From assembly GCA_041611735.1 (NCBI GenBank), contig JBFIML010000050.1:1-28031 (forward strand): a DNA stretch of 28,031 nt. The letters run 5' to 3'. Each line of letters begins with the position of its first letter. Position 1 is the stretch's first letter. Under the pieces are notes generated by a model. It saw only the letters and a list, made by a program, of their open reading frames with translations, ran no database searches and had not been told where the DNA came from. Origin of the DNA: Myxococcota bacterium (GTDB lineage: Bacteria; Myxococcota_A; UBA9160; PR03). This document shows, piece after piece, positions 8,558 through 26,117 of the stretch. A program made the translations under genes and the position numbers.

Positions 8558-9616
8558 CTACGGGCCCGGCGGACGCGCCGCCACGCCGGCCGTCATCGGC
8601 TCCAGCGCCAGGGCGCGCTGGCGCACGGTTCGGCGCTCCGCCTCGGGCAGCGGGATCAGGCCCTTGTCCGTCAGGTAGCCCTCCTCGCCCGCCGCGCGCT
8701 CGCTGGTGAACTCCGCCACGTACTCCGCGATGCCCGGGATCGAGCCCACGTGGGCCTTCTTCAGGTAGAAGTAGAGCGAACGCGAGACGCCGTACTCGCC
8801 GCTCGCGATGTGGTCGAAGCTCGGAGCCACGCCGTCCACCAGGCTGCCCTGGATCTTGTCGCTGTTCTGGTCCAGGAACGAGAAGCCGAAGATGCCCAGG
8901 GCGTTCGGGTTGGCCTGGAGCTTCTGGACGATCAGGTTGTCGTTCTCCCCGGCCTCCACGTAGGCGCCGTCCTCGCGCAGGGCATGGGCCGCGGCCTGGA
9001 ACGCCTTCGGGTCCTTCTCCTTGAGCGCCGCCAGCATCGGGAAGGCCTCGGCGCCCCCCTCCATGGCCAGCTCCACGAAGGCGTCGCGGGTGCCCGAGGT
9101 GGGCGGCGGGCCCAACACCTCGATCTTCGCGGCCGGAAGCGAGGGATCGATGTCACTCCATCTCCGATGGGGGTTCGCCACCAGCTTGCCGCCGACCGGC
9201 ACCTGCTTGGCCAGGGCCTGGAAGATCTGCGGCTGGGTGAGGCCCAGGCGCGGGGCGCTCCTGGCGTTGGCGATCACGATGCCGTCGTAGCCGATCTTGA
9301 CCTCGACGATCTCCTCGACCCCGTTCTTCCGACACAGGTCGATCTCCGACGCCTTGATGCGCCGGGAGGAGTTCGTGATGTCGGGGGTGTCGAGGCCCAC
9401 GCCGTCGCAGAAGAGCTTGAGGCCACCGCCGGACCCGGTGCTCTCCACCACCGGGGTCTTGAAGCGGGTGGTCTTGCCGAACTGCTCGGCCACGGCAGTG
9501 GAGAAGGGGAACACCGTCGAGGAGCCGACGATGCGGATCTGGTCGCGTGCCTGGACTTCGGGAGCGCCACAGCTCAGCACGGCGAGCGAGACGAGAGCGA
9601 GGGTCTTGATCTTCAC
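8558..9616 (-). CDS. pstS: Phosphate ABC transporter substrate-binding protein
   Basis: GTG 9616 follows an AGGAGGAG SD. Signal peptide, then RDQIRIVGSSTVFPF, VESTGSGGG, GPPPTSGTRDAF and SRSLYFY. Confidence 0.96.
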   Translation of the reverse strand: MKIKTLALVSLAVLSCGAPEVQARDQIRIVGSSTVFPFSTAVAEQFGKTTRFKTPVVESTGSGGGLKLFCDGVGLDTPDITNSSRRIKASEIDLCRKNGVEEIVEVKIGYDGIVIANARSAPRLGLTQPQIFQALAKQVPVGGKLVANPHRRWSDIDPSLPAAKIEVLGPPPTSGTRDAFVELAMEGGAEAFPMLAALKEKDPKAFQAAAHALREDGAYVEAGENDNLIVQKLQANPNALGIFGFSFLDQNSDKIQGSLVDGVAPSFDHIASGEYGVSRSLYFYLKKAHVGSIPGIAEYVAEFTSERAAGEEGYLTDKGLIPLPEAERRTVRQRALALEPMTAGVAARPPGP

Positions 9617-9691
9617 GATGGAACGCTCCTCCTGGTCGAGGCCTCGGAAAGCTCTCCCGGCTGGCGCGCTTCCCGGTCGGTTCGATGGCGC

Positions 9692-12851: not shown

Positions 12852-14087
12852 TCAGGCCTCGGGCCGGAAGCGCAGCGGGAGCCGGCCCGGAACCCGGAAC
12901 AGCGAGGGGCCCCACTCCACCTTGCGGGACACCAGCTCGAGCGCCTCGAAGCGCCGCGCCAGGCTGCCCATGGCGATCTGCCCCTCCAGGCGCGCCAGGT
13001 GCGCACCCAGACACAGGTGCGCTCCGCCCCCGAAGGCCAGGTGCGCGTTGTCGGTGCGATCGATGTCGAAGCGGTCGGGATCCGGGAAGCGCTCCGGGTC
13101 GCGGTTGGCCGCCCCGAGCAGAGCCAGCACCTGGCTGTTCTTCGGGATGGTCTTGCCGCCGAACTCGGCGTCCTCGTGCAAAGTGCGCATCGTCACCAGG
13201 ATGGGCCCGTCCCAGCGCAGACACTCCTCCACGGCGCTCGCCACCCGCTCGGGACGCGCCCGCAGCTTCGCCAGCTGGTCGGGATGCAGGAGCAGGGCGC
13301 GCACGCCGTTTCCGATCAGACCGATGGTGGTCTCGAAGCCGGCGATCAGCAGGCCCATGGCCTGGGAGACCAGCTCCGTGGGGGTCAGGCGGTCGCCCTC
13401 CGCCTCGGCGCGCAGCAGGCCGCTCAGGAGGTCGTCGCGGAGCTGCGTGCGGCGCTCGGCGATCAGCCGCTGGAAGTAGTCGCTCAGGGCGAGCCCGGCC
13501 TGGCGGGCCCGGGCCAGGACGTCCGGCGGCTGGATCGCCGCGGCGAGGCCGTGGGTGGCCTGGGCGGTCCAGACCGCGAAGCGCTCGTGGTCCTCGGCGG
13601 GGACACCCAGCATCTCGCAGATCACCGTGGCCGGGACCGGCAAGGCCAGGTCGGCGATCAGGTCCATCTCGCCGCGGGACGCCACCCGGTCGAGCCGCTC
13701 GTCCACGATGGCCTGCACGCGCGGCCGCATGGCCTCCACCGCCCGGGGCGTGAAGGCCCGGCTCACCAGCCTGCGCAGGCGCGTGTGGGCGGGCGGATCC
13801 TGCTGGAGCATGAACTCGCGCTGGTACTCCAGCTGCGACTCGTCGACGCCGGGCAGGCGACCGTCCGTGGTGCGGACCCCGCAACGCACGTCCTTGAGCA
13901 GGCGCACCACGTCGGCGTAGCGGCCGAGGCGCCAGATGCCGACGGGGGTGTGGTTGACCGGGTCGAGCGCGCGCAGGCGCGCGAGCGCCGGGTAGGGATC
14001 GTCGCGGAACGCCGGATCGAGAGGGTTCGCGCCGAACCAGGGATCGTCGGCCGGCGGGCCGGCGGCGGGCTCACTCGGGATGGACAT
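12852..14087 (-). CDS. Cytochrome P450
   Basis: DPPAHTRLRRLV, I-helix AGFETT, ExxR (EECLR), heme ligand FGGGAHLCLG. GGAGG SD and TATGCT upstream. Confidence 0.97.
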   Translation of the reverse strand: MSIPSEPAAGPPADDPWFGANPLDPAFRDDPYPALARLRALDPVNHTPVGIWRLGRYADVVRLLKDVRCGVRTTDGRLPGVDESQLEYQREFMLQQDPPAHTRLRRLVSRAFTPRAVEAMRPRVQAIVDERLDRVASRGEMDLIADLALPVPATVICEMLGVPAEDHERFAVWTAQATHGLAAAIQPPDVLARARQAGLALSDYFQRLIAERRTQLRDDLLSGLLRAEAEGDRLTPTELVSQAMGLLIAGFETTIGLIGNGVRALLLHPDQLAKLRARPERVASAVEECLRWDGPILVTMRTLHEDAEFGGKTIPKNSQVLALLGAANRDPERFPDPDRFDIDRTDNAHLAFGGGAHLCLGAHLARLEGQIAMGSLARRFEALELVSRKVEWGPSLFRVPGRLPLRFRPEA

Positions 14088-15735: not shown

Positions 15736-16251
15736 TCAGTGAAGGCGGGCCTTGACCCGCCGCAGCACCCAGCCAAGCACCGGCACCTGTTCGTAGGCAG
15801 CCTCGCCGAGGTCGAAGTAGTCGCGCTGGCGCTGGATGCGCCCGTCCCGGAAGCGCAGGTGGCTCACTCCCGCAAAGCTGCGCCCCGGGTCGCCGTCGCG
15901 GCCCGGCAGGCGCATGGTCCAGAAGAGCACCGCCTCCGCGTCGCCCACCAGCTCGTGGTCCACCTGGAAGCTCGCCCCCTCGGCGTAGGCCACGAACTCG
16001 CCCAGGTAGGCCTCGAGCGCCGGGAGGCCGTTCACCTGGGTGATCGGGTCCTGGAAGTGCACGTCCTCGGCGTACAGGCTGCCCAGGTCTTCGGCGACGG
16101 CCGGGGTGATGGTCGCGAAGCGGCGCTTGTACGCCTCCACCGGCTCCTGGGCCCAGGCTGCCGCCGGCCCCAGCAGGAGCGCGGCCACCAGTCCCGCCCG
16201 CAACGCGGCCCGGTGGCGGGCCGAGCCCGGCACGGCGGCCCGCGTGCTCAC
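15736..16251 (-). CDS. NTF2/SnoaL-like domain protein with signal peptide
   Basis: GTG 16251 overlaps the dps TGA. Signal peptide ending AAAWA-Q. Motifs LYAEDVHFQDP, GVSHLRFRDGRI and QRDYFD. Confidence 0.85.
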   Translation of the reverse strand: MSTRAAVPGSARHRAALRAGLVAALLLGPAAAWAQEPVEAYKRRFATITPAVAEDLGSLYAEDVHFQDPITQVNGLPALEAYLGEFVAYAEGASFQVDHELVGDAEAVLFWTMRLPGRDGDPGRSFAGVSHLRFRDGRIQRQRDYFDLGEAAYEQVPVLGWVLRRVKARLH

Positions 16252-16706
16252 TCGAGATGGCTGCGCAGCATCCAGGCGTTCTTCTCGTGCACCCGCATGC
16301 GCTGCACCGCCAGGTCGACGGTCCCCTCGTCGCCGGCCTTCTCCGCCGCCTGGAGCACCTGGCGCGCCGTGGCCACCACGGTGTGCTGGTCCACCGTGAG
16401 ACGCCGCAGCATCTCGCTGGCGTCCGGCGACTCCTGCTCCTCCTTCACCCGGGCGAGCTTCGCGAACTCCGTGTAGCTGCCCGGGGCCCGCTGGCCCAGG
16501 GCGCGGATGCGCTCCGCGATCTCGTCCACGGCCAGGGCCAGCTCCTGATACTCCTGCTCGAAGAGGGTGTGCAGGGTGGAGAACATGGGGCCCGTCACGT
16601 TCCAATGGTAGTTGTGGGTCTTCAGATACAGCGTGTAGCTGTCGGCGAGCAGGCGCGAGAGGGGTTTGGCGATCTCGCGCCGCGCCGCGTCGTCGAGCTT
16701 GGGCAT
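16248..16706 (-). CDS. dps: DNA-binding ferritin-like protein Dps
   Basis: LYLKTHNYHWNVTGPMFSTLHTLFE, DEIAERIRALG and HEKNAWML ferroxidase signatures. GGAGGA SD. Confidence 0.96.
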   Translation of the reverse strand: MPKLDDAARREIAKPLSRLLADSYTLYLKTHNYHWNVTGPMFSTLHTLFEQEYQELALAVDEIAERIRALGQRAPGSYTEFAKLARVKEEQESPDASEMLRRLTVDQHTVVATARQVLQAAEKAGDEGTVDLAVQRMRVHEKNAWMLRSHLE

Positions 16707-18259
16707 GGCGGTTCCTCCGGGAGAGGTTGCGTCTTCGCTTCCAAGGTAGGCAGTCCCGACGTGCCGTCAAACCGCGCGCCCTCCCGGCGCGCCGCCGCGG
16801 CGATGCCGGCCAGCATGCCGCGGAAGACCAGCGCGTGGAGCGGATAGATCCCGTACCAATAGAGCAGGCCCGAGAGCCCCACGGGATCGAAGGTCGCGGT
16901 CTGCCGGATGCAGGCCCCCGCACCCTCCGGGGTCACTTCGAACTCGAGCCAGGCGCGACCCGGAAGCTTCATCTCGGCGGCGAGCCGCAGGCGGCGATCC
17001 GCCTCGAAGGCCTCCACCCGCCAGCAGTCCAAAGCGTCGCCCACGCGCAGCCGCTCCGGGTGGCTGCGCCGCCGGCGCATGCCGACTCCGCCCACCAGCA
17101 GGTCCAGGAAGCCGCGCAGCTGCCACAGGAAGTCGTAGGCGTACCAGCCGGTGGCTCCGCCGATGCGCCGGATCGGGGCGAAGGCCGCGCGGGGCGGGAC
17201 CGGAACGCGGGCGGTGCGCGAGTCCAGCAGCCGGCGCCCGAAGCGCACGCCGCCGTAGGAGCGGGGCGCGGACGCCGCGGACGAGAGGGCGTCCGACCAG
17301 CGCGTCTCCGCGAACTCGCGATCCTCGTTGCGCAGGGCGCTGGCCACGGCCTCCCGCACGCCCTGGGGCTCGATGCGGAAGTCGCGCCGGGCCCGCTCGT
17401 CGTGGACGACGGTGGGGTGACGCACGCTCTCGATCAGCTTGCGGCCCACCCGGGCATAGAGCGGGGTCACCAGGCCGAGCCAGCGGCTGCTCAAGCGCGG
17501 CGTGAGCACCGGAACCGGGATCATGAGCCGACGCAGTCCCCGCTGCCTTGCGTACTCGCGCATCAGGTCCTGGTAGGACACCACGTCCGCTCCGCCGATC
17601 TCGTAGACCGGGTTTCCCCGGGGATCTGCATCGAGGGCCTCCACCAGGTAGTCCAGCAGGTCCTCGATGCCGATGGGCTGGGCGCGCACCTTGACCCAGC
17701 GCGGCGTCACCATGACCGGCAGGCGCTCCACCAGGGCACGCACCATCTCGAAGGAGAGGCTTCCGGATCCGATCACGATCGAGGCCCGGAACTCGATCAC
17801 CGGCACGCCCGAGTCCCGCAGCATGCGGCCCACCTCGTGGCGGCTGCGCAGGTGGGCGGAGAGCGCCCCGTCCTCGTCGCCGAGGCCGCCCAGGTACACG
17901 ATCCGGCCCACGCCGGCCTGGCGCGCGGCCGTTCCGAAGTGGCGTGCGGCCTCGCGGTCGCGCGCCTCGAAGCCGCCCGCGGCGCCCATGGAGTGCACCA
18001 GGTAGTAGGCGGTCTCGATCCCGGCCAGGGCCGGCGGGAGGCTCGCGGGATCCAGGAGATCGCCGCGCACGCTCTCCGCCTGGGGGCCGAGGCGGCCGCG
18101 CAGGTGCTCCGGCCGACGCGCCAGGCAGCGCAGGGGGACCCCGCGCTCCTGGAGCCGGCGCAGCAGCCGACCTCCCACGTAGCCGCTGGCCCCGGTGAGG
18201 AGCACGCGCCCCGGCGGGCGGGGGCGTGCCCCGGGCGTCGCGTCGGGCGAGAGCTCCAT
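16622..18259 (-). CDS. NAD(P)-binding SDR/epimerase-family oxidoreductase with C-terminal DUF2867 (YbjT-like)
   Basis: VLLTGASGYVGGRL, AYYLVHSM, IVYLGGLG, HLRSRHEVG. DUF2867-like part IGGATGWY...AEMKLPGRAWLEF...GLLYWY. The C-terminal ~55 aa run over the dps promoter and start. Confidence 0.88.
   Translation of the reverse strand: MELSPDATPGARPRPPGRVLLTGASGYVGGRLLRRLQERGVPLRCLARRPEHLRGRLGPQAESVRGDLLDPASLPPALAGIETAYYLVHSMGAAGGFEARDREAARHFGTAARQAGVGRIVYLGGLGDEDGALSAHLRSRHEVGRMLRDSGVPVIEFRASIVIGSGSLSFEMVRALVERLPVMVTPRWVKVRAQPIGIEDLLDYLVEALDADPRGNPVYEIGGADVVSYQDLMREYARQRGLRRLMIPVPVLTPRLSSRWLGLVTPLYARVGRKLIESVRHPTVVHDERARRDFRIEPQGVREAVASALRNEDREFAETRWSDALSSAASAPRSYGGVRFGRRLLDSRTARVPVPPRAAFAPIRRIGGATGWYAYDFLWQLRGFLDLLVGGVGMRRRRSHPERLRVGDALDCWRVEAFEADRRLRLAAEMKLPGRAWLEFEVTPEGAGACIRQTATFDPVGLSGLLYWYGIYPLHALVFRGMLAGIAAAARREGARFDGTSGLPTLEAKTQPLPEEPPCPSSTTRRGARSPNPSRACSPTATRCI
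16743..16770 (-). promoter_or_regulatory. Candidate sigma70-type promoter of dps
   Basis: TTGACG-N16-TACCTT on the minus strand, 36 nt upstream of the dps ATG. Confidence 0.55.
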
Positions 18260-18356
18260 GCCCGATGGATAGCCCGTCGGGCGGCGGATGGGTTCGGATC
18301 GAAGGCCCGCCTCCCCCCCCCAACCCCCAGGGGGACAGACCGGGCCGGACGCCGGC

Positions 18357-19349
18357 TCACGCGACGGTCGCGCCCGGCACCGGGGCGGGCCGGTAGAGCG
18401 CCGCGGCGCCCGCCCGGCGCAGGACCCCCTCGAGGGGCGCCGGGTCGGCGTAGGGCCAGAGCGCGACGATCGTCCCGCCCTGCCCGGCGCCGGCGAGCTT
18501 GGCGCCGGGAGCGCCGGCCGCCCGGGCCGCCTCGATGAGCCGCTCGTTGGCGGGGCCCGAGCCGCCGAGCCCGCGCTGGACGGCGTGGTTCTCGTCCATG
18601 AGACGGCCGAGCCGCTCCCAGTCGCCCGCCTCGAAGGCGCCGCGTCCCTCGCCGGCCAGGGCGCGCAGGCGTGCGTACGCCTCCAACACCTCGGGATCGC
18701 CCCGCTCCCAGCGGGCCCGGATCGGAGCGTGCACGTGGCCCGAGTGGTGCGACACCCCGGTCACCGCCAGCACGAAGGGCAGCGCGCCGCCGGGCGCGCT
18801 CACCTCCTCGACGCCGGCCCGGGGCGACACGCCCGGCGGCTCGTCGCGCTCCTTGCCGCGCAGGTCCACGAAGCGAAGCCCGCCGAAGCTGCACAGGTAG
18901 TGGTCCACCCAGCCGCAGGTCACGCCGAGCAGCTTGCGTTCGATCCAGCGCGCGCGCTCCGCCAGCTCGAAGGCGTCGAGGGGTCTCCCCTGCCAGGTCT
19001 CGAGGGCCTGGAGCAGCGCCACCAGCAGCGCCGTGGAGCCGGCCAGGCCGCTCTGCCGGGGGATCTCGCTCTGCCAGCGGATCCGCAGCGGCGGCAGCCG
19101 CTCGATACCGCGCAGCACGGCGCGGGCCAGATCGAACTCGTCGCCGCCCGGCGCGAGGTCGGCGGAGCGGCGAAGCGCGCGGCTGCGTCCGCCGGTCTCC
19201 ACCCGGCAGACGGGAGCGGGCTCGAGGACCACCCGGGCCCGCAGCGGCACCGAGCAGGCCAGCACGGCGCCGCCGTAGAGGTCCGAGGGATTGCCGAGCA
19301 GGTTGGCGCGCGCGGGAGCGGAGGCTCGCAGGCGCCGGGTAGCCGGCAC
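18357..19349 (-). CDS. GHMP-family sugar kinase, glucuronokinase-like
   Basis: GTG 19349, 2 nt after the upstream stop. Motif I ARANLLGNPSDLYGG, motif II IPRQSGLAGSTA, motif III GAKLAGAGQGG. Confidence 0.88.
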   Translation of the reverse strand: MPATRRLRASAPARANLLGNPSDLYGGAVLACSVPLRARVVLEPAPVCRVETGGRSRALRRSADLAPGGDEFDLARAVLRGIERLPPLRIRWQSEIPRQSGLAGSTALLVALLQALETWQGRPLDAFELAERARWIERKLLGVTCGWVDHYLCSFGGLRFVDLRGKERDEPPGVSPRAGVEEVSAPGGALPFVLAVTGVSHHSGHVHAPIRARWERGDPEVLEAYARLRALAGEGRGAFEAGDWERLGRLMDENHAVQRGLGGSGPANERLIEAARAAGAPGAKLAGAGQGGTIVALWPYADPAPLEGVLRRAGAAALYRPAPVPGATVA

Positions 19350-19351
19350 GC

Positions 19352-21697
19352 TCAGCCGGGGACGAGGCGCAGCGGTACCCAGCCCCGCGCCTCCACCCGC
19401 AGGCGGACCCGCCAGGGACCGCCCGCGGCCGCCTGGGTCCAGCCCGGCAGGGCGTCGCCGCGCGGGAGCGCCCGGGCGGTGGCGGCGTCGAGCCGGGCGA
19501 CCTCCGCCAGCGGGCGCGCCGCCCAGCCCCGGATCTCCACGGGCTCGTCCGGCGCCCCGAGGACGTCGAGGGTGACCGCGCCCGCGGCCTCCAGACGGAT
19601 CTCCCGCACGCGGCGGTCCCCCACGCTGGCGTAGCGGGACACGTCGCCGAAGACCGCGAGCTCGCCGGGCAGCAGCGGGCACAGGACGCGCAGGTCCCAG
19701 TCGCCGGGGGCCAGGGAGAGCTCGAGGGCGTCCCCGGGTGCCAGGCGTTCGAAGGCGTCCCGGCGCCAGTCGTAGCCGAGCACCGGGCCCAGCGGGCGGA
19801 GCTCGCCGAGGTCCGCCAGCGGCAGGCGGAAGCGCAGCGTCTCGCCGCCGCGCCAGGCGTTGAAGCTCGCCAGGTAGACCCAGCGCCCGGCCGGGTGCGT
19901 CGAGTAGGTCTCGCCGATCAGGGGCTCGGGCTCGAAGAAGGCATCGCGGCGGAAGCAGCGCTCCAGGGCCGCGATGGGCACGTCGGGCTTGACCAGCAGC
20001 CCGTCCGCGCGGCAGGTGCGCAGCACGAGCTCGCGGTCGGTGCGACCGAGGCGGTCTCCGATCCCGACGGGCCCGGCGGAGAGGGCCGCCAGCAGGGCCT
20101 CCGCCTCGGCGTGGGGATCGCCGTCCCAGCCGCTGCCCTGGCGCTGGGAGAGGAAGACGTCCTTGAAGGGCAGCAGGCCCAGGGCCCGGGCCAGGGCGTT
20201 CGTGTAGAGGAAGCGCACCCAGTGGGCGGGGTTGTCGGCCAGGTAGCGATAGTCGCCGCCGGTGCGGATCGCCACCACCCGCTCGAGGCCCAGGGTGGTG
20301 AGGAAGTCGGCAGGCGTCGCCATGCACCAGATCAGCGAGAGCCCGTGCTCCCCGGCCGCCCGGTCCAGGGCCTCCTGCCAGGCCCGGGCCCGGCCCGGAC
20401 GCTCGCGCAGGGCGCGCACGCCCAGGAACGACTCCACCAGCCAGTCCTGCTCGTAGGCCACGGCGCCCCAGCTGGCCGCCTGGCCCATCCAGTCCTGGAA
20501 GAGCTCCGGGCCCTGGGGATGGGCGCGGTCGCCGTCCAGCCACATGGGGTGGCGGCGCGCGTAGGGAGAGCGGCTCGAGATGTGGCGGCCGTGGAGGATG
20601 AGGGGGGCGTTGCCCAGGCGCCGCCGCAGGCCGTGCACGCCCTCCGGCAGCACGTCCGGGCGTGGCTCCCAGAGGTGCAGCCCGGTGGGCGGCACGGGAC
20701 CGGGCTGCCCGGGTCCCACGGGCCGGGTCGTCTCGTGGGGGTAGAACCAGGAGTCGAGCTCCACCGCCGCCACCGGCACCTGCTGCTCCCGCAGGCCGGC
20801 GAGGGTGTGCTCCAGGGTGGTGGACAGGTCGAGCCCGGGCTCCGTGCGGTACCAGTAGGCGGCTCCGTTGTCGGTCCAGTAGGAGAGGCATCCGACGGCG
20901 GCGTCCGCGTAGCGCGACGGACGCCGGGTCGCGTGCCGGCGGCGCAGCCGGCCGGCCCAGGCCTCCAGGACGCGACGCGGGCCGGGCCCCGCCCAGAGCG
21001 CGAGCTCCGTGGCGAAGCCGCGCGGCACCCGATCGAGGTCGCCCTGCCAGCCGCAGCGCACGCCCTCGGCCGCGCGCTCGCGGGCCGAGGGAACCGCGAT
21101 CACCTGCTCGTGGAAGGCGTCGAGGGGCGCCAGCAGGAGACAGCGACCGTCGGGCGCCAGCCAGGCCAGCGGCTCCACCACCGCGGGGCGGTGCGGAAAC
21201 AGCAGCAAGTCCGCCGCCTCCGCACCCCCGAAGGTGGGGAAGGCGAACTCCGTGAACTGGTGGCCGAAGCTGCGCGTTGCCTCGGGTACGCCGCCCGGCT
21301 GGCGCAGGGCCGGCCGCAGCCAGGGCCACACCACGCTCGGCTCGCCGAAGGCGCCGGTGGCGAGGCCCACCAGGTCGTCCGCCGCCTCGGTGCGGAACAC
21401 GAGGACGGGCTCCCGCGTGTAGGCCCGCACGCTGGTGCGCAGGGCGAGGGGCAGCGGCTCCCAGACCAGCTCCGCGCCCTGGTAGGGCCCGAGATCGTCC
21501 TCGCCCTGGAAGGGACGCAGCGTCACGCCGAGAGCCTTGGCCCGGGGTCCGGCGGGCTCCGCTCCCGACCAGCTCTCGCCCGCGTGCCGCACCGCGAAGG
21601 CCACGGGGCCGAGCCAGTCGGGCTCGCCCCAGGCGAGCCGCCACGGCCCCGCATCCTCGAGCCCCAGCACCAGCCCCTGCGCCGCTGCGATGCGCAC
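19352..21697 (-). CDS. Cytoplasmic glycoside hydrolase-like protein, clan GH-D / GH36 (Sip1/raffinose synthase-like)
   Basis: GTG 21697 follows GGGGAG (alternative start ATG 21727). TIM-barrel motifs in GH36 order: YWTDNG, ELDSWFY, YEQDWL, LIWCM, IRTGGDY, PFKDVF, ALSAGPVGIGD and ADGLLVKPD. Confidence 0.7.
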   Translation of the reverse strand: MRIAAAQGLVLGLEDAGPWRLAWGEPDWLGPVAFAVRHAGESWSGAEPAGPRAKALGVTLRPFQGEDDLGPYQGAELVWEPLPLALRTSVRAYTREPVLVFRTEAADDLVGLATGAFGEPSVVWPWLRPALRQPGGVPEATRSFGHQFTEFAFPTFGGAEAADLLLFPHRPAVVEPLAWLAPDGRCLLLAPLDAFHEQVIAVPSARERAAEGVRCGWQGDLDRVPRGFATELALWAGPGPRRVLEAWAGRLRRRHATRRPSRYADAAVGCLSYWTDNGAAYWYRTEPGLDLSTTLEHTLAGLREQQVPVAAVELDSWFYPHETTRPVGPGQPGPVPPTGLHLWEPRPDVLPEGVHGLRRRLGNAPLILHGRHISSRSPYARRHPMWLDGDRAHPQGPELFQDWMGQAASWGAVAYEQDWLVESFLGVRALRERPGRARAWQEALDRAAGEHGLSLIWCMATPADFLTTLGLERVVAIRTGGDYRYLADNPAHWVRFLYTNALARALGLLPFKDVFLSQRQGSGWDGDPHAEAEALLAALSAGPVGIGDRLGRTDRELVLRTCRADGLLVKPDVPIAALERCFRRDAFFEPEPLIGETYSTHPAGRWVYLASFNAWRGGETLRFRLPLADLGELRPLGPVLGYDWRRDAFERLAPGDALELSLAPGDWDLRVLCPLLPGELAVFGDVSRYASVGDRRVREIRLEAAGAVTLDVLGAPDEPVEIRGWAARPLAEVARLDAATARALPRGDALPGWTQAAAGGPWRVRLRVEARGWVPLRLVPG

Positions 21698-21858
21698 CGC
21701 GCTCCCCGTTCGCGAGCCCCGGGCCATTCTGGGCTGGGGGGCTCCCGGCGGCAAGCGAGCGCGTCGCGGCCGGCAGCGGTCGTCGCGAGCCCCGAGTGAC
21801 GGCGGTCACGGGCCGGCGACCCGTTGCGGCCGAGAACCGGGCCGGGGAGGGAACGCGC

Positions 21859-22587
21859 GTGACGCGAGGACGCGATCTGCTGCTGGTGGACACGGGGAGC
21901 TGCATGGAGCTCCTGGCGGGACGCCTGCGCCGGCTCGGCTACCGGACGCTGTGGGCCAAGACCAGCATGGAGGCCTACGCGGCGCTCGAGGACCCCCTCT
22001 ACGACGTGGGCGCGGTGGTGATGCGACCGGATCTCGCGGCGACGGACCTGCGTCGGGCGCTCGAGGCGTTCCGCAGCCACGCCCGGGACGCGGCGCTCGC
22101 CTATCTGGTGACGGGCCAGCGCCCCGAACTCGGGGAGCGCCGCCGCCTGCGGGACGCGGGCGTGACCGCGGCCCTGTGGGAGCCCATCGACCAGCATGCG
22201 CTGCGCTTCCAGGTGAACCGCGCCCTCGCCCAGCCGGGCGTCGTGCGCGGCCGGCGCGGCGCCCTGCGCGCGCCGGCCGTGTGGCCCGCGCGGGTCTGGG
22301 CGGACGGGCGCGAGAAGCAGGCCCGCGTCTACAGCGCCTCGGCGGCCGGCGTCTTCCTGGCCACGCCGCGCCCCTCGCCCCGCAACGTGCCGCTTCGCAT
22401 CGAGCTCCCGCTCCCGTCGGGCCGGGTGGCCCTGGCGGGGCGGGTGGTGATGACGAACGTGCCGGGGAACCTGATGCGGCGCACCCTGCCGGTGGGCATG
22501 GGCGTGCGCTTTGAGCAGCCGCCGGTCGAGGTCCAGGCGACCCTGGAGCTGTGGGCCACGAAGCGCTTCCGCAGCCTGGTGGTGTGA
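21859..22587 (+). CDS. Pseudo-receiver domain plus PilZ domain protein
   Basis: GTG 21859 follows GGGGAGG. REC-like LLLVD...LGYRT...AALWEPID. PilZ-like RGALR, SASAAGVFL, GRVVMTN and GMGVRF. Confidence 0.8.
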   Translation: MTRGRDLLLVDTGSCMELLAGRLRRLGYRTLWAKTSMEAYAALEDPLYDVGAVVMRPDLAATDLRRALEAFRSHARDAALAYLVTGQRPELGERRRLRDAGVTAALWEPIDQHALRFQVNRALAQPGVVRGRRGALRAPAVWPARVWADGREKQARVYSASAAGVFLATPRPSPRNVPLRIELPLPSGRVALAGRVVMTNVPGNLMRRTLPVGMGVRFEQPPVEVQATLELWATKRFRSLVV

Positions 22588-22602
22588 GCGGAACCCGGCT
22601 CC

Positions 22603-24738
22603 CTAGTCCGGAAGCACCGCGGGCGGCCGGTCCTCCACCTCGCGCCGGCGACGCATGAGCACGAGCTGCGCGCGTACGCCGCCCGCGGCCGTGGGGGGCC
22701 GGTGGGAGCCGTCGGGCAGGATCTCGCGGGCCTTCACGTCGTCGCGCAGGTAGACGTCGAGGATCTCCTCCAGGCGCTCGCGCACCGCCCGCGTGCGGGC
22801 GCGGCACATCACCTCGACGCGCCCGTCCAGGTTGCGGGGCATCCAGTCGGCGCTGCCGAACCAGAGCTCCGGCTCGCCGCCGTTCTCGAAGCGGATGATG
22901 CGCGAGTGCTCCAGGAAGCGGTCCACGATGGAGCGCACGCGGATCGTCTCCGAGAGGCCGGGAACGCCGGGGCGCAGGCAGCAGATGCCCCGCACCACGA
23001 GATCGATCCGCACGCCCGCCTGGGAGGCCTCGTAGAGGGCCCGGATCACGCCCTCGTCCTGCAGGGCATTCAGCTTGGCCAGGATCGAGCCCGGGTGTCC
23101 CGCGCGGGCGTGGGCCGCCTCCCGGGCGATGCGCTCCAGGATGCCGCGACGCAGGGTGAGGGGAGCCACCAGCAGGTGCTCCCAGCGTTCGTTGGTGGTC
23201 AGGCTCGTCAGCAGGTTGAAGACGCTCGCCACCTCGGCGGTCACGCCGGGATCGGCGGTGAACAGGCCGAGGTCGGTGTAGAGGCGCGCGGTGGTGGGAT
23301 TGTAGTTGCCGGTCCCGATGTGGGCATAGCGGCGCAGCTGGTCCTCCTCGCGTCGCACCACCAGCATGAGCTTGCAGTGGGTCTTCAGGCCGAGCTGGCC
23401 GTAGACGATCTGGACACCCGCCTCCTCCATGCGTCGGGCCCAGCGGATGTTCTTCTCCTCGTCGAAGCGGGCCTGCAGCTCCACCACGCAGGTGACCTGC
23501 TTGCCGCGCTCGGCCGCGCCGAGCAGGGCGCGAGCGATCGGCGAGTCCTCGTTGGTCCGATACAGGGTCTGCTTGATGGCGAGCACGCGGGGATCGTCCG
23601 CCGCCTGCTCCACGAAGTCGATCACGCTGTCGAAGGAGTCGTAGGGATGGTGCAGGAGCACGTCCGCGGCGCGGATCGCCGTGAAGATCTTGGCCGGCTC
23701 CCGCAGGGCGTGATGGACCGGCGCCACGTAGGGGGGATCCTTCAGGCGCGCATCGTCCTCGAGCGCGAGCAGCTGCATGAGGCGCGAGAGGTTCACGGGG
23801 CCGTCGCACTCGTAGAGGTCGCCCGCCTCGAGATCGAACACTTCGAAAAGCTCCTGCTTGAGGCGCTCGCCCACCGGCGCGCGGGCCTCCAGACGCACCG
23901 CCTCGCCCCGGCGCCGGCGCCGCAGCTCCTGCTCGATGGCGGTGAGCAGGTTCTCCGCCTCCTCCTCGTCCACGTACAGGTTGCTGTTGCGGGTCACCCG
24001 GAAGGCGGTGTGATCCAGGATGGCCACGCGCGGAAAGAGGTCCGGCAGGCGCCAGCGGACCACGTCGGCCAGGAAGACGTAGCGGCTGACGCGCCCGTGC
24101 CGCGGCAGGCGCAGCAGGCGCGGCAGCATGACCGGCACCTGCACCACGCCGAGACGGTCGGGCTCCTCCGGGTCGTCGGTCTCGAGCAGCGCCGCGATGC
24201 TCAGGCGGCCGCTCGCCAGGTGGGGAAACGGATGGGCGGGATCCACGGCAATGGGCGTGAGCACGGGAAAGATCTCGCGCTCGAAGACCTGACCCAGCCA
24301 CGCGGCCTCGTCGGGCGCCAGGGCATCGGGCGCCACGAACTGGACGCCCTCCTTCTCCAGGGCCGGGCGCAGGACCTGGTTCCAGCAGCGGTACTGGTCC
24401 GCCACCTGCTCGCGGACCGTGGCCGCGATGGCGGCAAGCTGCTCGGTGGGCGTCATCCCGTCCGGAGGCCGTGAAGCGACGCCCGCCTCCGCCTGCTGGC
24501 GCAGGCCCGCCACCCGCACCTCGAAGAACTCGGTCAGGTTCGAGTCCACGATGGCCAGGAACTTGACCCGCTCCAGCAGCGGATTGGCCGCGTCCTGGGC
24601 CTCCTCGAGCACCCGGCGGTTGAAGCCGAGCCAGGAGAGCTCCCGGTTCGTGAAGAGCGCCGCCCCCTGGTCTCCCCGCACCATCTCCCACACCGGATCG
24701 GCCAACCTCCCGCTCCCCAGGAGCGCCTTCGCCCCCAC
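22603..24738 (-). CDS. ppk1: Polyphosphate kinase 1
   Basis: FTNRELSWLGFNRRVL, EFFEVRVAGL, HHPYDSF, KQTLYRT, ELQARFDEEKNI, autophosphorylated His in KTHCK, IVDRFLEHSR, SADWMPRN. Start uncertain within about 60 nt. Confidence 0.98.
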   Translation of the reverse strand: MGAKALLGSGRLADPVWEMVRGDQGAALFTNRELSWLGFNRRVLEEAQDAANPLLERVKFLAIVDSNLTEFFEVRVAGLRQQAEAGVASRPPDGMTPTEQLAAIAATVREQVADQYRCWNQVLRPALEKEGVQFVAPDALAPDEAAWLGQVFEREIFPVLTPIAVDPAHPFPHLASGRLSIAALLETDDPEEPDRLGVVQVPVMLPRLLRLPRHGRVSRYVFLADVVRWRLPDLFPRVAILDHTAFRVTRNSNLYVDEEEAENLLTAIEQELRRRRRGEAVRLEARAPVGERLKQELFEVFDLEAGDLYECDGPVNLSRLMQLLALEDDARLKDPPYVAPVHHALREPAKIFTAIRAADVLLHHPYDSFDSVIDFVEQAADDPRVLAIKQTLYRTNEDSPIARALLGAAERGKQVTCVVELQARFDEEKNIRWARRMEEAGVQIVYGQLGLKTHCKLMLVVRREEDQLRRYAHIGTGNYNPTTARLYTDLGLFTADPGVTAEVASVFNLLTSLTTNERWEHLLVAPLTLRRGILERIAREAAHARAGHPGSILAKLNALQDEGVIRALYEASQAGVRIDLVVRGICCLRPGVPGLSETIRVRSIVDRFLEHSRIIRFENGGEPELWFGSADWMPRNLDGRVEVMCRARTRAVRERLEEILDVYLRDDVKAREILPDGSHRPPTAAGGVRAQLVLMRRRREVEDRPPAVLPD

Positions 24739-24822: not shown

Positions 24823-25287
24823 GTGCCCGACGCCGCCAAGTTCCGCCAGACCCTGAGCGTCCTGTACCGGCGCTTCAACGCCCTGCAGCGTGACGAGAAG
24901 CGCTGCTTCGGCGTAACCCTCTCCCAGTGCGTGACGGTCGAGGTGCTGCACGAGGCGGGGCCCCAGCCCATGCGCGAGCTGGCGGCGCGGCTCGGCGTCG
25001 ACACGAGCACCGTCACCCGGGTGGTGGACGTGCTCGAGCGCGACGGCCTCGTGCGCCGGACCCGTGACGCGCAACGCGATAGCCGGCGCGTGTTCGTCTC
25101 CCTGACGGAGGCCGGCCGCCGCCTGGCCCGGCGTCTGGAGGCGTGCGCGGATGCCTACTGCGAGCGCATCCTGGCGCGCATTCCCGGCGAGCGGCGCGAG
25201 GACGTCCTGCACGCCCTCGGCGTGCTGTGCGAAGCCATCGAGCAGTGGCCTGCGGCCTGCGGGCCGGGGTTCCAGGAGGAGTCATGA
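24823..25287 (+). CDS. MarR-family transcriptional regulator, Cys-rich
   Basis: GTG 24823 follows GGGAGG. wHTH MRELAARLGVDTSTVTRVVDVLERDGLVRR...DSRRVFVSLTEAG. Six Cys. Confidence 0.92.
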   Translation: MPDAAKFRQTLSVLYRRFNALQRDEKRCFGVTLSQCVTVEVLHEAGPQPMRELAARLGVDTSTVTRVVDVLERDGLVRRTRDAQRDSRRVFVSLTEAGRRLARRLEACADAYCERILARIPGERREDVLHALGVLCEAIEQWPAACGPGFQEES

Positions 25288-26117
25288 GCACGAACCAACG
25301 GCTGGGCGACGCGGAAACGATCCGCCAACACGTGCGCCAGGGCTACGGCCGCCTGGCGGAGGGCAGCGGGAGCTGTTGCGGAGCGAGCAACGCCGCGGAC
25401 GCCATGGCGCGTCGCGTCGGATACACGGAGGAGGAGCTCCGCGCCGTGCCCGAAGGCGCCAACCTGGGAGTGGGCTGCGGCAACCCGACCGCCCTGGCGG
25501 AGCTGCGCCCGGGCGAGGTGGTGCTCGACCTCGGCTCGGGAGCGGGCTTCGACGCCCTGCTCGCCGCTCGCCGCGTGGGTCCGGCCGGACGGGTGATCGG
25601 AGTGGACATGACCGAGGCGATGCTCGCCCGGGCGCGCGCCAACGCCGCGCGGACCGGGCTCGCGAACGTGGACTTCCGCCACGGCACGATCGAGGCGCTT
25701 CCCGTGGAGGACGCCAGCGTGGACGTGATCCTCTCCAACTGCGTGGTGAACCTCTCGCCGGAGAAGCAGCGCGTGTTCCAGGAGGCCTTCCGGGTGCTGC
25801 GGCCGGGCGGTCGGCTGCTGGTCTCGGACCTCGTGCTCGAGCGGGCCCTGCCGGAGCCGGTGGCGCAGCAGCTCGACGCCTGGGTGGGCTGCATCGGCGG
25901 CGCGTCCCTGCGCGGGGAGTATCTGGAGGCCTTGCGCAAGGCCGGCTTCGAGAGCGTCGCGGTGGTGCGCGAGGCGCGCTGGGCCGACTCCCTCGCCGCG
26001 GACGACGACCAGCTCGCCGAGCTCGCCCGCGGCTACGGGATGGCGCCGGAGCTGGCCCGGGAGGTGCTCGACACGGTGACCAGCATCCACCTGCGGGCCC
26101 GCAAGCCCGAGGCTTGA
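25284..26117 (+). CDS. arsM: Arsenite S-adenosylmethionine methyltransferase
   Basis: ATGA overlap with the marR stop, AGGAGGAG SD. Motifs SCCG, NLGVGCGNP, VLDLGSGAGFD, SNCVVNL and WVGCIGGA (the conserved ArsM cysteines). Confidence 0.88.
   Translation: MSTNQRLGDAETIRQHVRQGYGRLAEGSGSCCGASNAADAMARRVGYTEEELRAVPEGANLGVGCGNPTALAELRPGEVVLDLGSGAGFDALLAARRVGPAGRVIGVDMTEAMLARARANAARTGLANVDFRHGTIEALPVEDASVDVILSNCVVNLSPEKQRVFQEAFRVLRPGGRLLVSDLVLERALPEPVAQQLDAWVGCIGGASLRGEYLEALRKAGFESVAVVREARWADSLAADDDQLAELARGYGMAPELAREVLDTVTSIHLRARKPEA

Follow-up and report, generated by a model that had tools for sequence, protein, structure and literature searches.

Two genes on the minus strand of the window, by which we mean the whole 28,031-nt stretch of DNA analysed here, encode a 781-aa glycosidase-like protein and a 330-aa GHMP-superfamily kinase (Table 1). 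The first-pass annotation had described the two genes as lying 2 nt apart, which proved correct, and every motif string that it quoted was found in the two proteins. Both reading frames are backed by GC3 frame analysis. A 1182-aa ORF that runs across the whole region was rejected as a high-GC artefact, being protein-like only in its last 330 codons, which are those of the kinase. The junction between the two genes reads ...GGC TGA gc GTG CCG..., and the 2-nt spacer suggests that they may be co-transcribed and translationally coupled. No promoter-like or terminator-like sites were detected in positions 18000-22700.

Table 1. Genes and sequence features of the glycosidase-kinase pair (residue numbers refer to the respective protein).
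Feature	Position	Strand	Remark
781-aa clan GH-D glycosidase-like gene	19352..21697	minus	GTG start, TGA stop
LDSW, residues 314-317; putative counterpart of the DDGW sugar-binding motif	20747..20758	minus	position only
YEQD, residues 415-418; D418 predicted catalytic nucleophile	20444..20455	minus	offset from 7exf alignment
RTGGDY, residues 478-483; RxxxD motif, D482 predicted acid/base	20249..20266	minus	aligned to 7exf
PFKDVF, residues 510-515, and LSAGPVGIGD, residues 539-548; barrel beta7/beta8 motifs	20054..20170	minus	aligned to 7exf
Spacer, glycosidase TGA stop to kinase GTG start	19350..19351	minus	2 nt
330-aa GHMP-superfamily kinase gene	18357..19349	minus	GTG start
LGNPSD, residues 18-23; N-terminal substrate-binding signature	19281..19298	minus	within GalKase_gal_bdg match (residues 9-43)
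IPRQSGLAGS, residues 96-105; GHMP phosphate-binding loop	19035..19064	minus	GHMP_kinases_N

The 781-aa protein is a predicted clan GH-D enzyme

The AlphaFold (AF2) model of the 781-aa protein (pLDDT 92.8, pTM 0.93) comprises an N-terminal beta-sandwich, a (beta/alpha)8 barrel and C-terminal beta-sandwiches. Its best Foldseek matches are 7exj, 7exg, 7exh and 7exf (E 1.5e-29 to 3.1e-28, with 7exj and 7exf at 1.5e-29), followed by the next family at E 2e-18. VIA superposition on 7exg gave a Z of 27.7 and an rmsd of 3.3 A for 628 aligned residues spanning positions 4-780, and 50 of 50 entries among the VIA matches listed are GH27, GH36 or GH31 enzymes. In addition, a diverse family profile of 55 sequences (A2) matches PDB 7exf (Arabidopsis RS6/AkaGal3) by sequence with E 4.1e-10. 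Model and profile support a three-domain clan GH-D (beta/alpha)8 enzyme that has its closest kin in the plant raffinose-synthase/alkaline alpha-galactosidase group, and the GH-D barrel proposed earlier is borne out by these matches.

No Pfam or NCBIfam model matched the protein at E<=0.01, and the Melibiase-family and GH36 Pfam models gave no match to it. PF05691 reached 11.2 bits (E 0.078, residues 437-574), below its gathering threshold of 20 bits; it was the sole recurring weak Pfam match in the family (10 of 43 members at E<=0.5), and its threshold was passed by two of the 43 members scanned, P0263 with 23.7 bits and P0386 with 52.3 bits. By sequence comparison, the protein belongs to a family that is without a Pfam model and distantly homologous to the GH36 plant raffinose synthase/alkaline alpha-galactosidase. 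This family amounts to 3784 clusters at 50% identity (E<=1e-3), and its language-model neighbours include rotifer clusters. Some of the distant members are secreted proteins of several domains that carry SASA esterase, CBM96 or Por_Secre_tail modules and have a degradative look. The N-terminus of the 781-aa protein itself, modelled with confidence as a beta-strand that belongs to the N-domain, has no twin-Arg motif; the protein is probably cytoplasmic.

Predicted catalytic residues are kept in a divergent sugar pocket

The alignment of the profile with 7exf pairs CM with C425-M426, RtsgD with R443ASDD447, PfkD with PDWD479 and GpVgiGD with GGPLYVSD. In the 781-aa protein, IWCM occupies residues 456-459, R478-T-G-G-D482 matches R443-A-S-D-D447 residue for residue, and PFKDVF and LSAGPVGIGD align with PDWD479MF and ISGGPLYVSD. 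The nucleophile region lies outside the HMMER alignment; here a constant 35-residue offset to 7exf puts D418, which stands at the end of predicted strand 412-417, on the nucleophile D383 and E416 on K381, and the spacing between nucleophile and acid/base (D418-D482, 64 residues) is the same as that of D383-D447. LDSW stands at the end of predicted strand beta2 (311-314), and this strand position together with its invariant Asp suggests that it is the equivalent of D243-D244 in the DDGW motif; the pocket equivalences other than R478, D482, D513 and D548 are likewise probable assignments. D315, D418, R478, D482, D513 and D548 are invariant in all 55 family sequences, with identity down to 22%. 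The collinearity with raffinose synthase that had been noted from the motifs therefore goes beyond chance in the profile alignment for CM, RxxxD, PxxD and GGPxxxxD and extends to D418 by offset, while the pairing of LDSW with DDGW is one of position. The two aspartates named earlier as catalytic, D418 and D482, are retained as such.

The sugar-binding residues bear on whether the protein could be an ordinary alpha-galactosidase that, with a second galactokinase, makes the galactose of alpha-galactosides (raffinose, melibiose, galactinol-like) available to metabolism. In favour of such a reading, the nearest solved structures are mostly alpha-galactosidases or close kin, and the protein retains the RxxxD motif, the predicted nucleophile Asp and, judged by position, the second Asp of DDGW. 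For the roles of the clan GH-D RxxxD and KxD residues we follow the available text of PMC9912918, according to which the KxD lysine touches galactose O3/O4 in 7exf. Against galactose, this lysine position is held by Glu (E416) in 53 of 55 family members, so that the motif reads E-Q-D, and at position 314, the presumed place of the first DDGW Asp, the four commonest residues listed (L/F/I/V) account for 53 of 55 sequences, with Asp not among the residues listed. The missing Melibiase and GH36 Pfam matches count in the same direction. Judged by its residues, the 781-aa protein is probably not an ordinary alpha-galactosidase, because the KxD lysine is replaced by Glu and, by position, the first DDGW Asp by a hydrophobic residue; the former change would also make the -1 site more acidic. 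The divergent pocket residues remarked on in the first-pass annotation are supported, and since the -1 pocket differs from that of alpha-galactosidases, the sugar released is probably other than plain galactose.

The kinase is predicted to act on the anomeric position of a sugar

Three Pfam models matched the kinase above their cut-offs, namely PF00288 (GHMP_kinases_N, 60.7 bits; cut-off 22.3), PF08544 (GHMP_kinases_C, 44.6 bits; 21) and PF10509 (25.6 bits; 23.1). It remained below every NCBIfam equivalog cut-off: the best curated model was mevalonate kinase TIGR00549 (105.1 bits vs 163.05), and galactokinase TIGR00131 (54.5 bits vs 226.65) and the D-glycero-D-manno-heptose 7-phosphate kinase HddA NF049969 (53 bits vs 600) were missed as well. 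In the source genome, at 95% completeness, the GHMP_N genes number only three, which are this kinase, a true GalK (TIGR00131 285 bits vs 226.65) and IspE. We rejected an assignment as GalK on its TIGR00131 score and the presence of the separate true GalK, in keeping with the first-pass annotation, which had set the kinase apart from galactokinase. The galactose-binding signature of galactokinases, which the kinase carries (25.6 bits vs a cut-off of 23.1), would fit the pairing of an alpha-galactosidase with a second galactokinase; however, a bona fide GalK is already at hand, and a search of the 95%-complete genome for GalT (PF01087) found none. Together with the altered pocket, this makes the galactose reading quite unlikely.

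The assignment as a mevalonate kinase was also rejected, on the TIGR00549 score and on the genome's use of the MEP pathway. DXS and IspE are over their cut-offs, and no HMG-CoA reductase turned up in the 95%-complete genome, so that there appears to be no mevalonate pathway. The best PDB sequence match of the kinase is mevalonate kinase 8teb (1.1e-19), and heptose kinase 3k85 scores equal to it. The nearest longer relatives of the kinase are the kinase-NTP_transferase fusions P0397-P0399 (31-33% identity), in which the kinase precedes the NTase. The same order is seen in L096, L100 and L101, where the genes of the nearest paralogues are immediately followed by NTP_transferase genes. From its sequence relationships we predict that the kinase is an anomeric sugar-1-kinase ('type 1').

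The motifs LGNPSD and IPRQSGLAGS of the kinase presumably resemble those of glucuronokinases. In ESM-Atlas, a Streptophyta 'glucuronokinase' cluster took rank 2 (score 0.96, 205 of 256 shared features), and we treat the resemblance to the plant enzyme as a lead only. It nevertheless raises the question of whether an alpha-linked uronic acid is what the glycosidase frees, with a kinase of the glucuronokinase type serving UDP-uronate salvage, as the first-pass annotation had considered. Glucuronokinase relatives are reported in 'a few bacteria' in the available part of the Arabidopsis paper (PMC2823444), and animal glucuronokinases are fused to a nucleotidyltransferase according to the text available from PMC3938481, as are the nearest longer relatives of our kinase. 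The conserved pocket motifs, in contrast, have gained no new Arg or Lys, the change from Lys to Glu makes the -1 site more acidic, and uronate-metabolism genes were found near none of the loci examined. A uronic acid is thus not supported, and we regard this reading as very unlikely.

The gene pair is partially conserved

An orthologous kinase lies downstream of the glycosidase and on the same strand in 25 of 80 related loci, at a distance of <=150 nt in 21 of them, and in 7 of the 80 a kinase of a different GHMP lineage lies upstream. A GHMP kinase thus adjoins the glycosidase in 32 of 80 loci, and at least two kinase lineages are involved. The upstream kinases of L006 and L031 fall in a 99/99-supported NTase-linked clade, and a three-gene module of glycosidase, kinase and NTP_transferase is present in L002, L006, L007, L031 and L046. 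Of the 7 genomes in the phylum sample that have an orthologous glycosidase, 5 carry the two genes side by side. The available flanks of the remaining 48 of 80 loci have no GHMP kinase, and in 35 of these loci the flank on either side is 1.1 kb or longer. Where the glycosidase identity is <53%, which applies to 24 loci, many of them labelled Acidimicrobiia or Actinomycetota, a neighbouring GHMP kinase is always lacking. Conservation of the pair, which the first-pass annotation had put forward as a check, is accordingly real but partial. Genome G123 has kept a 63%-identical kinase and has no glycosidase match at E<=1e-20, and G033 and G057 have the glycosidase and kinase paralogues of only 39-43%, located on other contigs. 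The kinase in the window has no adjacent NTase gene, and no close homologue of the module NTase was found in its genome, where the best match is 28% identical.

These neighbourhoods allow two further readings to be weighed. First, the kinase may not act on a sugar at all. It may instead resemble mevalonate kinase or phosphorylate another small acid in connection with acyl-CoA metabolism, its place beside the glycosidase being inherited synteny without functional coupling. This would fit the best curated and PDB matches, both of which are mevalonate kinases, the enoyl-CoA hydratase gene that comes after the kinase gene in at least 10 loci, one database protein (P0395) being a fusion of the two, and the kinase without a glycosidase in G123. 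The score under the curated cut-off, the MEP-pathway genome with only three GHMP genes and the equal score of the heptose kinase speak against it, and synteny alone hardly explains why at least two GHMP lineages, one with an NTP_transferase, occur beside the glycosidase. We consider a non-sugar kinase highly improbable.

Second, the large protein may mainly be a transglycosidase or synthase that builds or remodels a cytoplasmic oligosaccharide or glycoside, for example a compatible solute, with the kinase, with or without the NTase, supplying or recycling the donor sugar. According to the available text of PMC9912918, the closest relative, AtAkaGal3/RS6, acts both as a hydrolase and as a synthase; moreover, the glycosidase appears to be cytoplasmic, often stands alone and is very strongly conserved, with a mean column identity of 62% across phyla, as would be expected in endogenous metabolism, and no uptake genes were found near it in the neighbourhoods examined. 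However, a free-sugar kinase directly downstream suits hydrolysis better, no galactinol-synthase-like or other glycosyltransferase gene recurs in the neighbourhoods examined, and the SASA esterase, CBM96 and Por_Secre_tail modules of the secreted distant members have a degradative look. A main role in synthesis therefore seems unlikely. The neighbourhoods examined also have no recurring sugar transporter, isomerase or other carbohydrate gene beside the pair.

Proposed function

We favour the reading, with a probability of roughly 0.6, that the pair consists of an unannotated GH-D alpha-glycosidase and a C1 sugar kinase that salvage the sugar released. The 781-aa protein would be a retaining alpha-glycosidase of the cytoplasm, perhaps with transglycosidase activity as well, from a deep branch of clan GH-D. 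It would work by double displacement, D418 serving as nucleophile and D482 as acid/base, in a -1 sugar pocket altered with respect to alpha-galactosidases by the Glu in place of the KxD lysine and the hydrophobic residue in place of the first DDGW Asp. The sugar would be freed from a cell-internal compound, phosphorylated at C1 by the coupled GHMP kinase and returned to metabolism as the sugar-1-phosphate, most likely via a nucleotidyltransferase. That the enzyme acts by hydrolysis rather than transfer, that phosphorylation is anomeric and that the two proteins are functionally coupled is what we infer from the combined evidence. The salvage of a nucleotide sugar that had been suggested from the gene pair gains support from the NTP_transferase that completes the module in five loci, and the data support a route in which a sugar is released, 1-phosphorylated and activated.

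More tentatively, the protein may belong to the founding set of a large GH family, marked by E-Q-D and hydrophobic-D-S-W, that acts on a non-galactose sugar (e.g. amino, 6-deoxy or pentopyranose) and is joined by a kinase of new anomeric specificity and, in some lineages, by a dedicated nucleotidyltransferase, in an undescribed nucleotide-sugar salvage on an endogenous cytoplasmic glycoside. We found no published description. If true, this would be an undescribed bacterial nucleotide-sugar salvage pathway in uncultured Myxococcota and Binatia.

Comparison with known systems

AtAkaGal3/RS6 (7exf, 7exg, 7exh and 7exj; GH36, PF05691 Raffinose_syn) shares its three-domain architecture with the 781-aa protein over the full length; the predicted nucleophile Asp, RxxxD, CM, PxxD and GGPxxxxD are collinear, and the 64-residue catalytic spacing is identical. 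The two differ in that identity is 14-15%, the PF05691 score is 11.2 vs 20 bits, and KVD and, judged by position, DDGW are replaced by EQD and (L/F/I/V)DSW in the family of the 781-aa protein, which, unlike the plant enzyme, is bacterial, probably cytoplasmic and paired with a kinase. Bacterial/archaeal GH36/GH27 alpha-galactosidases, alpha-N-acetylgalactosaminidases and beta-L-arabinopyranosidases have the clan GH-D barrel and the catalytic positions in common with it (Z 19-21; e.g. T. maritima GalA 5m1i, rice 1uas and S. avermitilis 3a21), but they align over the barrel only, some with one flanking domain in addition (328-477 residues), and according to the available text of PMC9912918 they all keep the KxD lysine.

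The kinase has the GHMP fold and ATP loop in common with GalK (TIGR00131) and mevalonate kinase (TIGR00549), and its N-terminal signature is related to that of GalK, whereas its scores fall below both curated cut-offs. Plant glucuronokinase, animal GKUP and Bacteroides/plant FKP resemble the proposed system in coupling or fusing a GHMP anomeric kinase to a sugar-1-P nucleotidyltransferase for nucleotide-sugar salvage. The available sources describe no glycosidase partner for these systems, unlike the pair reported here, and the domain order of zebrafish GKUP, as given in the accessible text of PMC3938481, is the reverse of the kinase-then-NTase order in P0397-P0399; as in GKUP and FKP, however, paralogues of our kinase are fused or adjacent to an NTP_transferase.

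Results

The gene pair in the window

Both genes, called from third-position GC and translation, lie on the minus strand, which the first-pass annotation had not stated; the motif strings that it quoted were all found, in the same order, in the translated window. The genes are separated by 2 nt (TGA-gc-GTG), and a GGGGAG lies 4 nt ahead of the first GTG. With a G+C content of about 75%, the window abounds in long spurious open frames. One of these, an 1182-aa frame spanning both genes (18357-21905, minus strand), was rejected as a high-GC artefact: only its final 330 codons are protein-like, and the first ~850, rich in Arg, Pro, Gly and Ala, are unlike protein and read in a different frame from the glycosidase gene. 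It could mislead automatic gene callers. No promoter or terminator was found in a scan of 18000-22700. The neighbours, among them a CBS protein, show no obvious relation to the pair. In the stretch separating ppk1 from the glycosidase gene, GC3 marks a plus-strand coding frame that has no Pfam family and, near its C-terminus, a weak PilZ-like TIGR02266 match (30.2 bits against a cut-off of 68.7). The Dps and DUF2867 frames as called overlap by 85 nt, and one of the two probably starts later.

Coordinates of the gene pair, its neighbours and related features in other loci
Feature	Sequence	Position	Strand	Remarks
Glycosidase gene	window	19352..21697	minus	GTG start, 781 aa
Kinase gene	window	18357..19349	minus	GTG start, 330 aa
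ppk1 (polyphosphate kinase 1)	window	22603..24738	minus	
Coding frame by GC3	window	21806-22587	plus	ORF 21277..22587
DUF2867/NAD-binding protein	window	16622..18259	minus	
Dps	window	16248-16706	minus	
Cytochrome P450	window	12852-14087	minus	
Arsenite methyltransferase ArsM	window	25143-26117	plus	NF008823, 330.8 bits
PF01704 UDPGP-family gene	G000:C11 (window's genome)	83014-83925	minus	
EgtB/EgtD-like genes	L036	3202-5420	plus	also L004, L016, L019, L023, L026, L049, L055
EgtD-like gene	L094	4709-5674	minus	near kinase in G123
Enoyl-CoA hydratase	L036	9238-10092	plus	284 aa; NF006109, 439.6 bits
Enoyl-CoA hydratase	L012	7323-8144	plus	directly after glycosidase
PEP_mutase/isocitrate-lyase family	L015	8349-9191	plus	between glycosidase and kinase
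PEP_mutase/isocitrate-lyase family	L076 (Ilumatobacteraceae)	8847-9641	plus	downstream of glycosidase
Distant-paralogue locus	L103	8192-9988		
Distant-paralogue locus	L106	4067-5851		
Distant-paralogue locus	L108	571-2367		
Distant-paralogue locus	L110	3939-5699		

Fold and active site of the glycosidase

AlphaFold2, run on a 37-sequence alignment, returned a model of the 781-aa protein (pLDDT 92.8, pTM 0.93) with an N-terminal beta domain, an eight-stranded alpha/beta barrel (residues ~270-560) and C-terminal beta-sandwiches. Against the PDB, Foldseek ranked Arabidopsis alkaline alpha-galactosidase 3 / raffinose synthase 6 (AtAkaGal3; 7exj, 7exg, 7exh, 7exf) first, at E 1.5e-29 to 3.1e-28 and TM 0.64-0.72, followed by a group of GH36 galactosaminidase and GH97 entries at E ~2e-18. 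The best VIA-align match (Z 27.7, rmsd 3.3 A) covered 628 aligned residues across model positions 4-780; GH27 and GH36 alpha-galactosidases came next at Z ~20, and all 50 entries shown belonged to GH27, GH36 or GH31. The single sequence reached 7exf with E 0.46 at best, and a PDB sequence match depends on a diverse profile of 55 family members (down to 22% identity; E 4.1e-10, 7exf residues 399-733), because a profile of 37 close orthologues found none. Structure and profile searches thus bear out the clan GH-D barrel that had been proposed.

The structure paper on AtAkaGal3 gives the nucleophile as D383 in 381-KVD-383, the acid/base as D447 in 443-RASDD-447 and the -1 subsite residues as D243, D244, W307, K381 and R443 (PMC9912918), in the same numbering as the 7exf chain. 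HMMER paired R478-T-G-G-D482 of the window protein with R443-A-S-D-D447, C458-M459 with C425-M426, D513 with D479 and GPVGIGD548 with GGPLYVSD. The numbering of the two proteins differs by 35 at either end of the barrel stretch that aligns, so that a 16-residue extension puts D418 on D383, E416 on K381 and Q417 on V382; nucleophile and acid/base are 64 residues apart in both proteins. In the model, D418 closes predicted strand 412-417 and D482 comes after strand 474-478, in agreement with the beta4 and beta6 positions of clan GH-D. D315, D418, R478, D482, D513 and D548 are invariant in the 55 diverse sequences, which, as judged from these alignments, indicates that the retaining clan GH-D catalytic machinery is intact.

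The sugar pocket appears to differ. Position 416 is Glu in 53 of 55 sequences (one Lys, one Leu). At position 314, 53 of 55 have L, F, I or V, and Asp is absent from the residues listed. Two galactose-contacting residues would thus be changed family-wide, which argues against an ordinary alpha-galactosidase. Such an enzyme, working beside a second galactokinase, has the top structural matches in its favour, and we hold it to be quite unlikely. A raffinose-synthase-like transglycosidase we consider unlikely as well.

An unannotated protein family

No Pfam or NCBIfam family matched the 781-aa protein at E<=0.01. Of 8000 candidates scored in a word-indexed search, 1054 were relatives at E<=1e-3; none of the 120 relatives listed carries a precomputed Pfam domain, the named ones are 'hypothetical protein', and MAGs of Myxococcota, Binatia and 'Deltaproteobacteria' are the main source. 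When 1.84 billion representatives were searched exhaustively with a profile, 3784 clusters matched at E<=1e-3, of which 835 reached E<=1e-30. The family is strongly conserved, and its distant members also lack Pfam domains save for stray PF05691 matches; a few of them are long proteins with SASA esterase, CBM96, PATR or Por_Secre_tail modules. PF05691 was the sole recurrent weak Pfam match (10 of 43 members at E<=0.5), scoring 11.2 bits for the window protein and 52.3 bits for database protein P0386. A search for authentic PF05691 sequences found none in the window's own genome, and 7 of 201 genomes of the phylum gave merely local matches of 18-23.5 bits to profile positions 201-252.

In the ESM Atlas, two of the three nearest clusters are eukaryotic, mostly Rotifera, one with PF05691 on 13% of its members; as a lead, the family may be present in bdelloid rotifers, possibly through gene transfer. 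Distant paralogues (33-42% identity) from another family of the phylum adjoin Pfam-less proteins of ~590-600 aa in L103, L106, L108 and L110, and in the first two also DUF4956 and HlyD-like genes, in what looks like a different, unexplained module. The contexts of 13 such paralogues in the phylum held no consistent sugar-catabolic genes.

The kinase

The 330-aa kinase matched GHMP_kinases_N and GHMP_kinases_C in Pfam and barely exceeded the GalKase_gal_bdg cut-off. Every NCBIfam equivalog model scored below its threshold, including mevalonate kinase (105.1 of 163 bits), galactokinase (54.5 of 226.65) and HddA (53 of 600). Mevalonate and heptose kinases were the best PDB sequence matches (~1e-19), and the names of its 120 top-scoring database relatives (55-72% identity) go no further than 'galactokinase/mevalonate kinase-like predicted kinase' or 'galactokinase family protein'. 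Three GHMP_N matches occur in the window's genome (4.09 Mb, 95% complete): this kinase, IspE and a true galactokinase (TIGR00131, 285 bits, above cut-off). We rejected a galactokinase reading, given the low score and a role already taken. DXS is present (806 bits) and HMG-CoA reductase was not found in this genome, and the organism therefore uses the MEP pathway; a mevalonate kinase, whose model also scored below cut-off, would have no pathway there.

The ESM Atlas ranked a Streptophyta 'glucuronokinase' cluster second (score 0.96), a lead that may favour the glucuronokinase-like placement made earlier; according to an Arabidopsis paper, relatives of glucuronokinase occur in 'a few bacteria' (PMC2823444). 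The uronic-acid substrate suggested with that placement gains no support from the predicted pocket, where Lys is replaced by Glu and no new conserved basic residue occurs at the motif positions; we judge this version very unlikely. Among longer proteins, the kinase search gave seven matches, including three kinase-NTP_transferase fusions (P0397-P0399, 31-33% identity), a fucokinase-type protein, a kinase-enoyl-CoA hydratase fusion (P0395) and a kinase-EEP fusion (P0396), the last joining the kinase to an endonuclease/exonuclease/phosphatase domain.

Conservation of the pair and its nucleotidyltransferase

A scan of one genome per species yielded 80 glycosidase loci, in which the kinase was sought by tblastn. 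An orthologue of the window's kinase (type 1, 52-72% identity) lies downstream on the same strand in 25, within 150 nt in 21 and at 0.86-1.9 kb in 4; in 7 others, a GHMP kinase of 34-38% identity (type 2) lies just upstream. The flanks examined contained no GHMP kinase in the remaining 48, of which 35 have flanks of 1.1 kb or more on each side. The 32 kinase-positive loci all fall among the 56 in which the glycosidase shares 53% identity or more with that of the window; none of the 24 more distant loci, many labelled Acidimicrobiia or Actinomycetota, has a neighbouring GHMP kinase. The proposed conservation of the pair thus holds for a part of the family.

In the phylum sample of 201 genomes, the orthologous glycosidase (at least 52% identity) occurs in 7 and the orthologous kinase (at least 61%) in 6; they are adjacent in five, namely the window's genome and all four genomes sampled from its family. 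In G123 the kinase occurs with no glycosidase match at E<=1e-20, and G033 and G057 have the glycosidase with kinase paralogues of just 39-43% on other contigs. A genome-wide kinase search in ten genomes whose glycosidase has no neighbouring kinase found a 59% orthologue in one (G207, apparently ~6 kb downstream on the same contig), only 31-41% paralogues in seven and none at E<=1e-15 in two.

In L096, L100 and L101, kinase paralogues of 35-41% identity from the same order stand immediately ahead of an NTP_transferase gene. By Pfam, L002 has type-2 kinase, nucleotidyltransferase and glycosidase on one strand, and in L006, L007, L031 and L046 a kinase-nucleotidyltransferase pair is divergent from the glycosidase. 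In a maximum-likelihood GHMP tree of 27 rows, the nucleotidyltransferase-linked kinases, the fusions and the type-2 kinases of L006 and L031 form one clade (99/99) with all type-1 rows outside; the L005 kinase groups with that of G033 (99/94). Support in this tree is confined to that clade and small groups, with no supported grouping among type-1 kinases, GalK and fucokinase. The position beside the glycosidase has therefore been taken up independently by at least two GHMP lineages, one of them together with a putative nucleotide-sugar-forming enzyme. This is the strongest argument for a functional link and for a sugar as the kinase substrate. A non-sugar kinase whose linkage is purely syntenic is in our estimate most improbable.

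Typing six module or paralogue nucleotidyltransferases with NCBIfam gave scores far short of all equivalog cut-offs and hence no clue to the sugar. The module enzyme is without a close homologue in the window's genome (best match 28% identical), and GalT (PF01087) was not found there, though GalK is present. This genome does carry a PF01704 gene, of a eukaryote-type UDPGP pyrophosphorylase family; PF01704 occurs in 127 of 201 phylum genomes and in none of 14 well-known control prokaryotes, and was rejected as a co-occurrence marker for the pair, being non-discriminating.

Other neighbours

No recurring transporter or catabolic sugar gene was found beside the pair at the loci examined, and 86 downstream ORFs of kinase-less loci were heterogeneous by Pfam, with no recurring carbohydrate gene. 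A subset of loci shares the order EamA transporter, ceramidase-like, EgtB-like, EgtD-like, glycosidase, kinase and enoyl-CoA hydratase (Pfam on L036 representatives, BLAST clustering elsewhere). The EgtB-like (FGE-sulfatase and DinB_2) and EgtD-like (histidine-specific methyltransferase) genes, an ergothioneine-synthesis pair, immediately precede the glycosidase in 8 of 80 loci by the same methods. An EgtD-like gene is also near the kinase of G123, where the glycosidase is missing, and the adjacency may reflect either synteny within a clade or a genuine link. The enoyl-CoA hydratase comes after the kinase in at least 10 loci and immediately after the glycosidase in L012, and is fused in frame to the kinase in P0395 (624 aa, contig of L023). 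A PEP_mutase/isocitrate-lyase-family gene separates glycosidase and kinase in L015, and one lies downstream of the glycosidase in L076.

Discussion

We propose, with a probability of about 0.6, that the 781-aa protein, from an unannotated family related to GH36, is a retaining alpha-glycosidase, which would free a sugar from an endogenous or imported small glycoside in the cytoplasm, and that a coupled anomeric kinase would salvage this sugar. Plain galactose is disfavoured as the released sugar, and uronic acid is unsupported. If the substrate were plain galactose, the finding would be an ordinary one. Neither the bacterial family nor the gene pair turned up in our search of the open-access literature; in CAZy, the proteins may already be filed under GH36.

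Both lineages, the clan GH-D enzyme and the GHMP kinase, are uncharacterised, and they come with a defined active-site difference and a partly conserved module. The clan GH-D placement, the named catalytic residues and the Lys-to-Glu pocket change turn metagenomic dark matter into an enzyme that can be assayed directly, and the module could provide a glycosidase of new specificity, along with a new anomeric kinase for the chemo-enzymatic synthesis of sugar-1-phosphates and nucleotide sugars. The recurrence of glycosidase and GHMP kinase, in some loci with a nucleotidyltransferase, points to a plant-like salvage route, 'sugar-1-kinase then pyrophosphorylase', in poorly studied soil and sediment bacteria.
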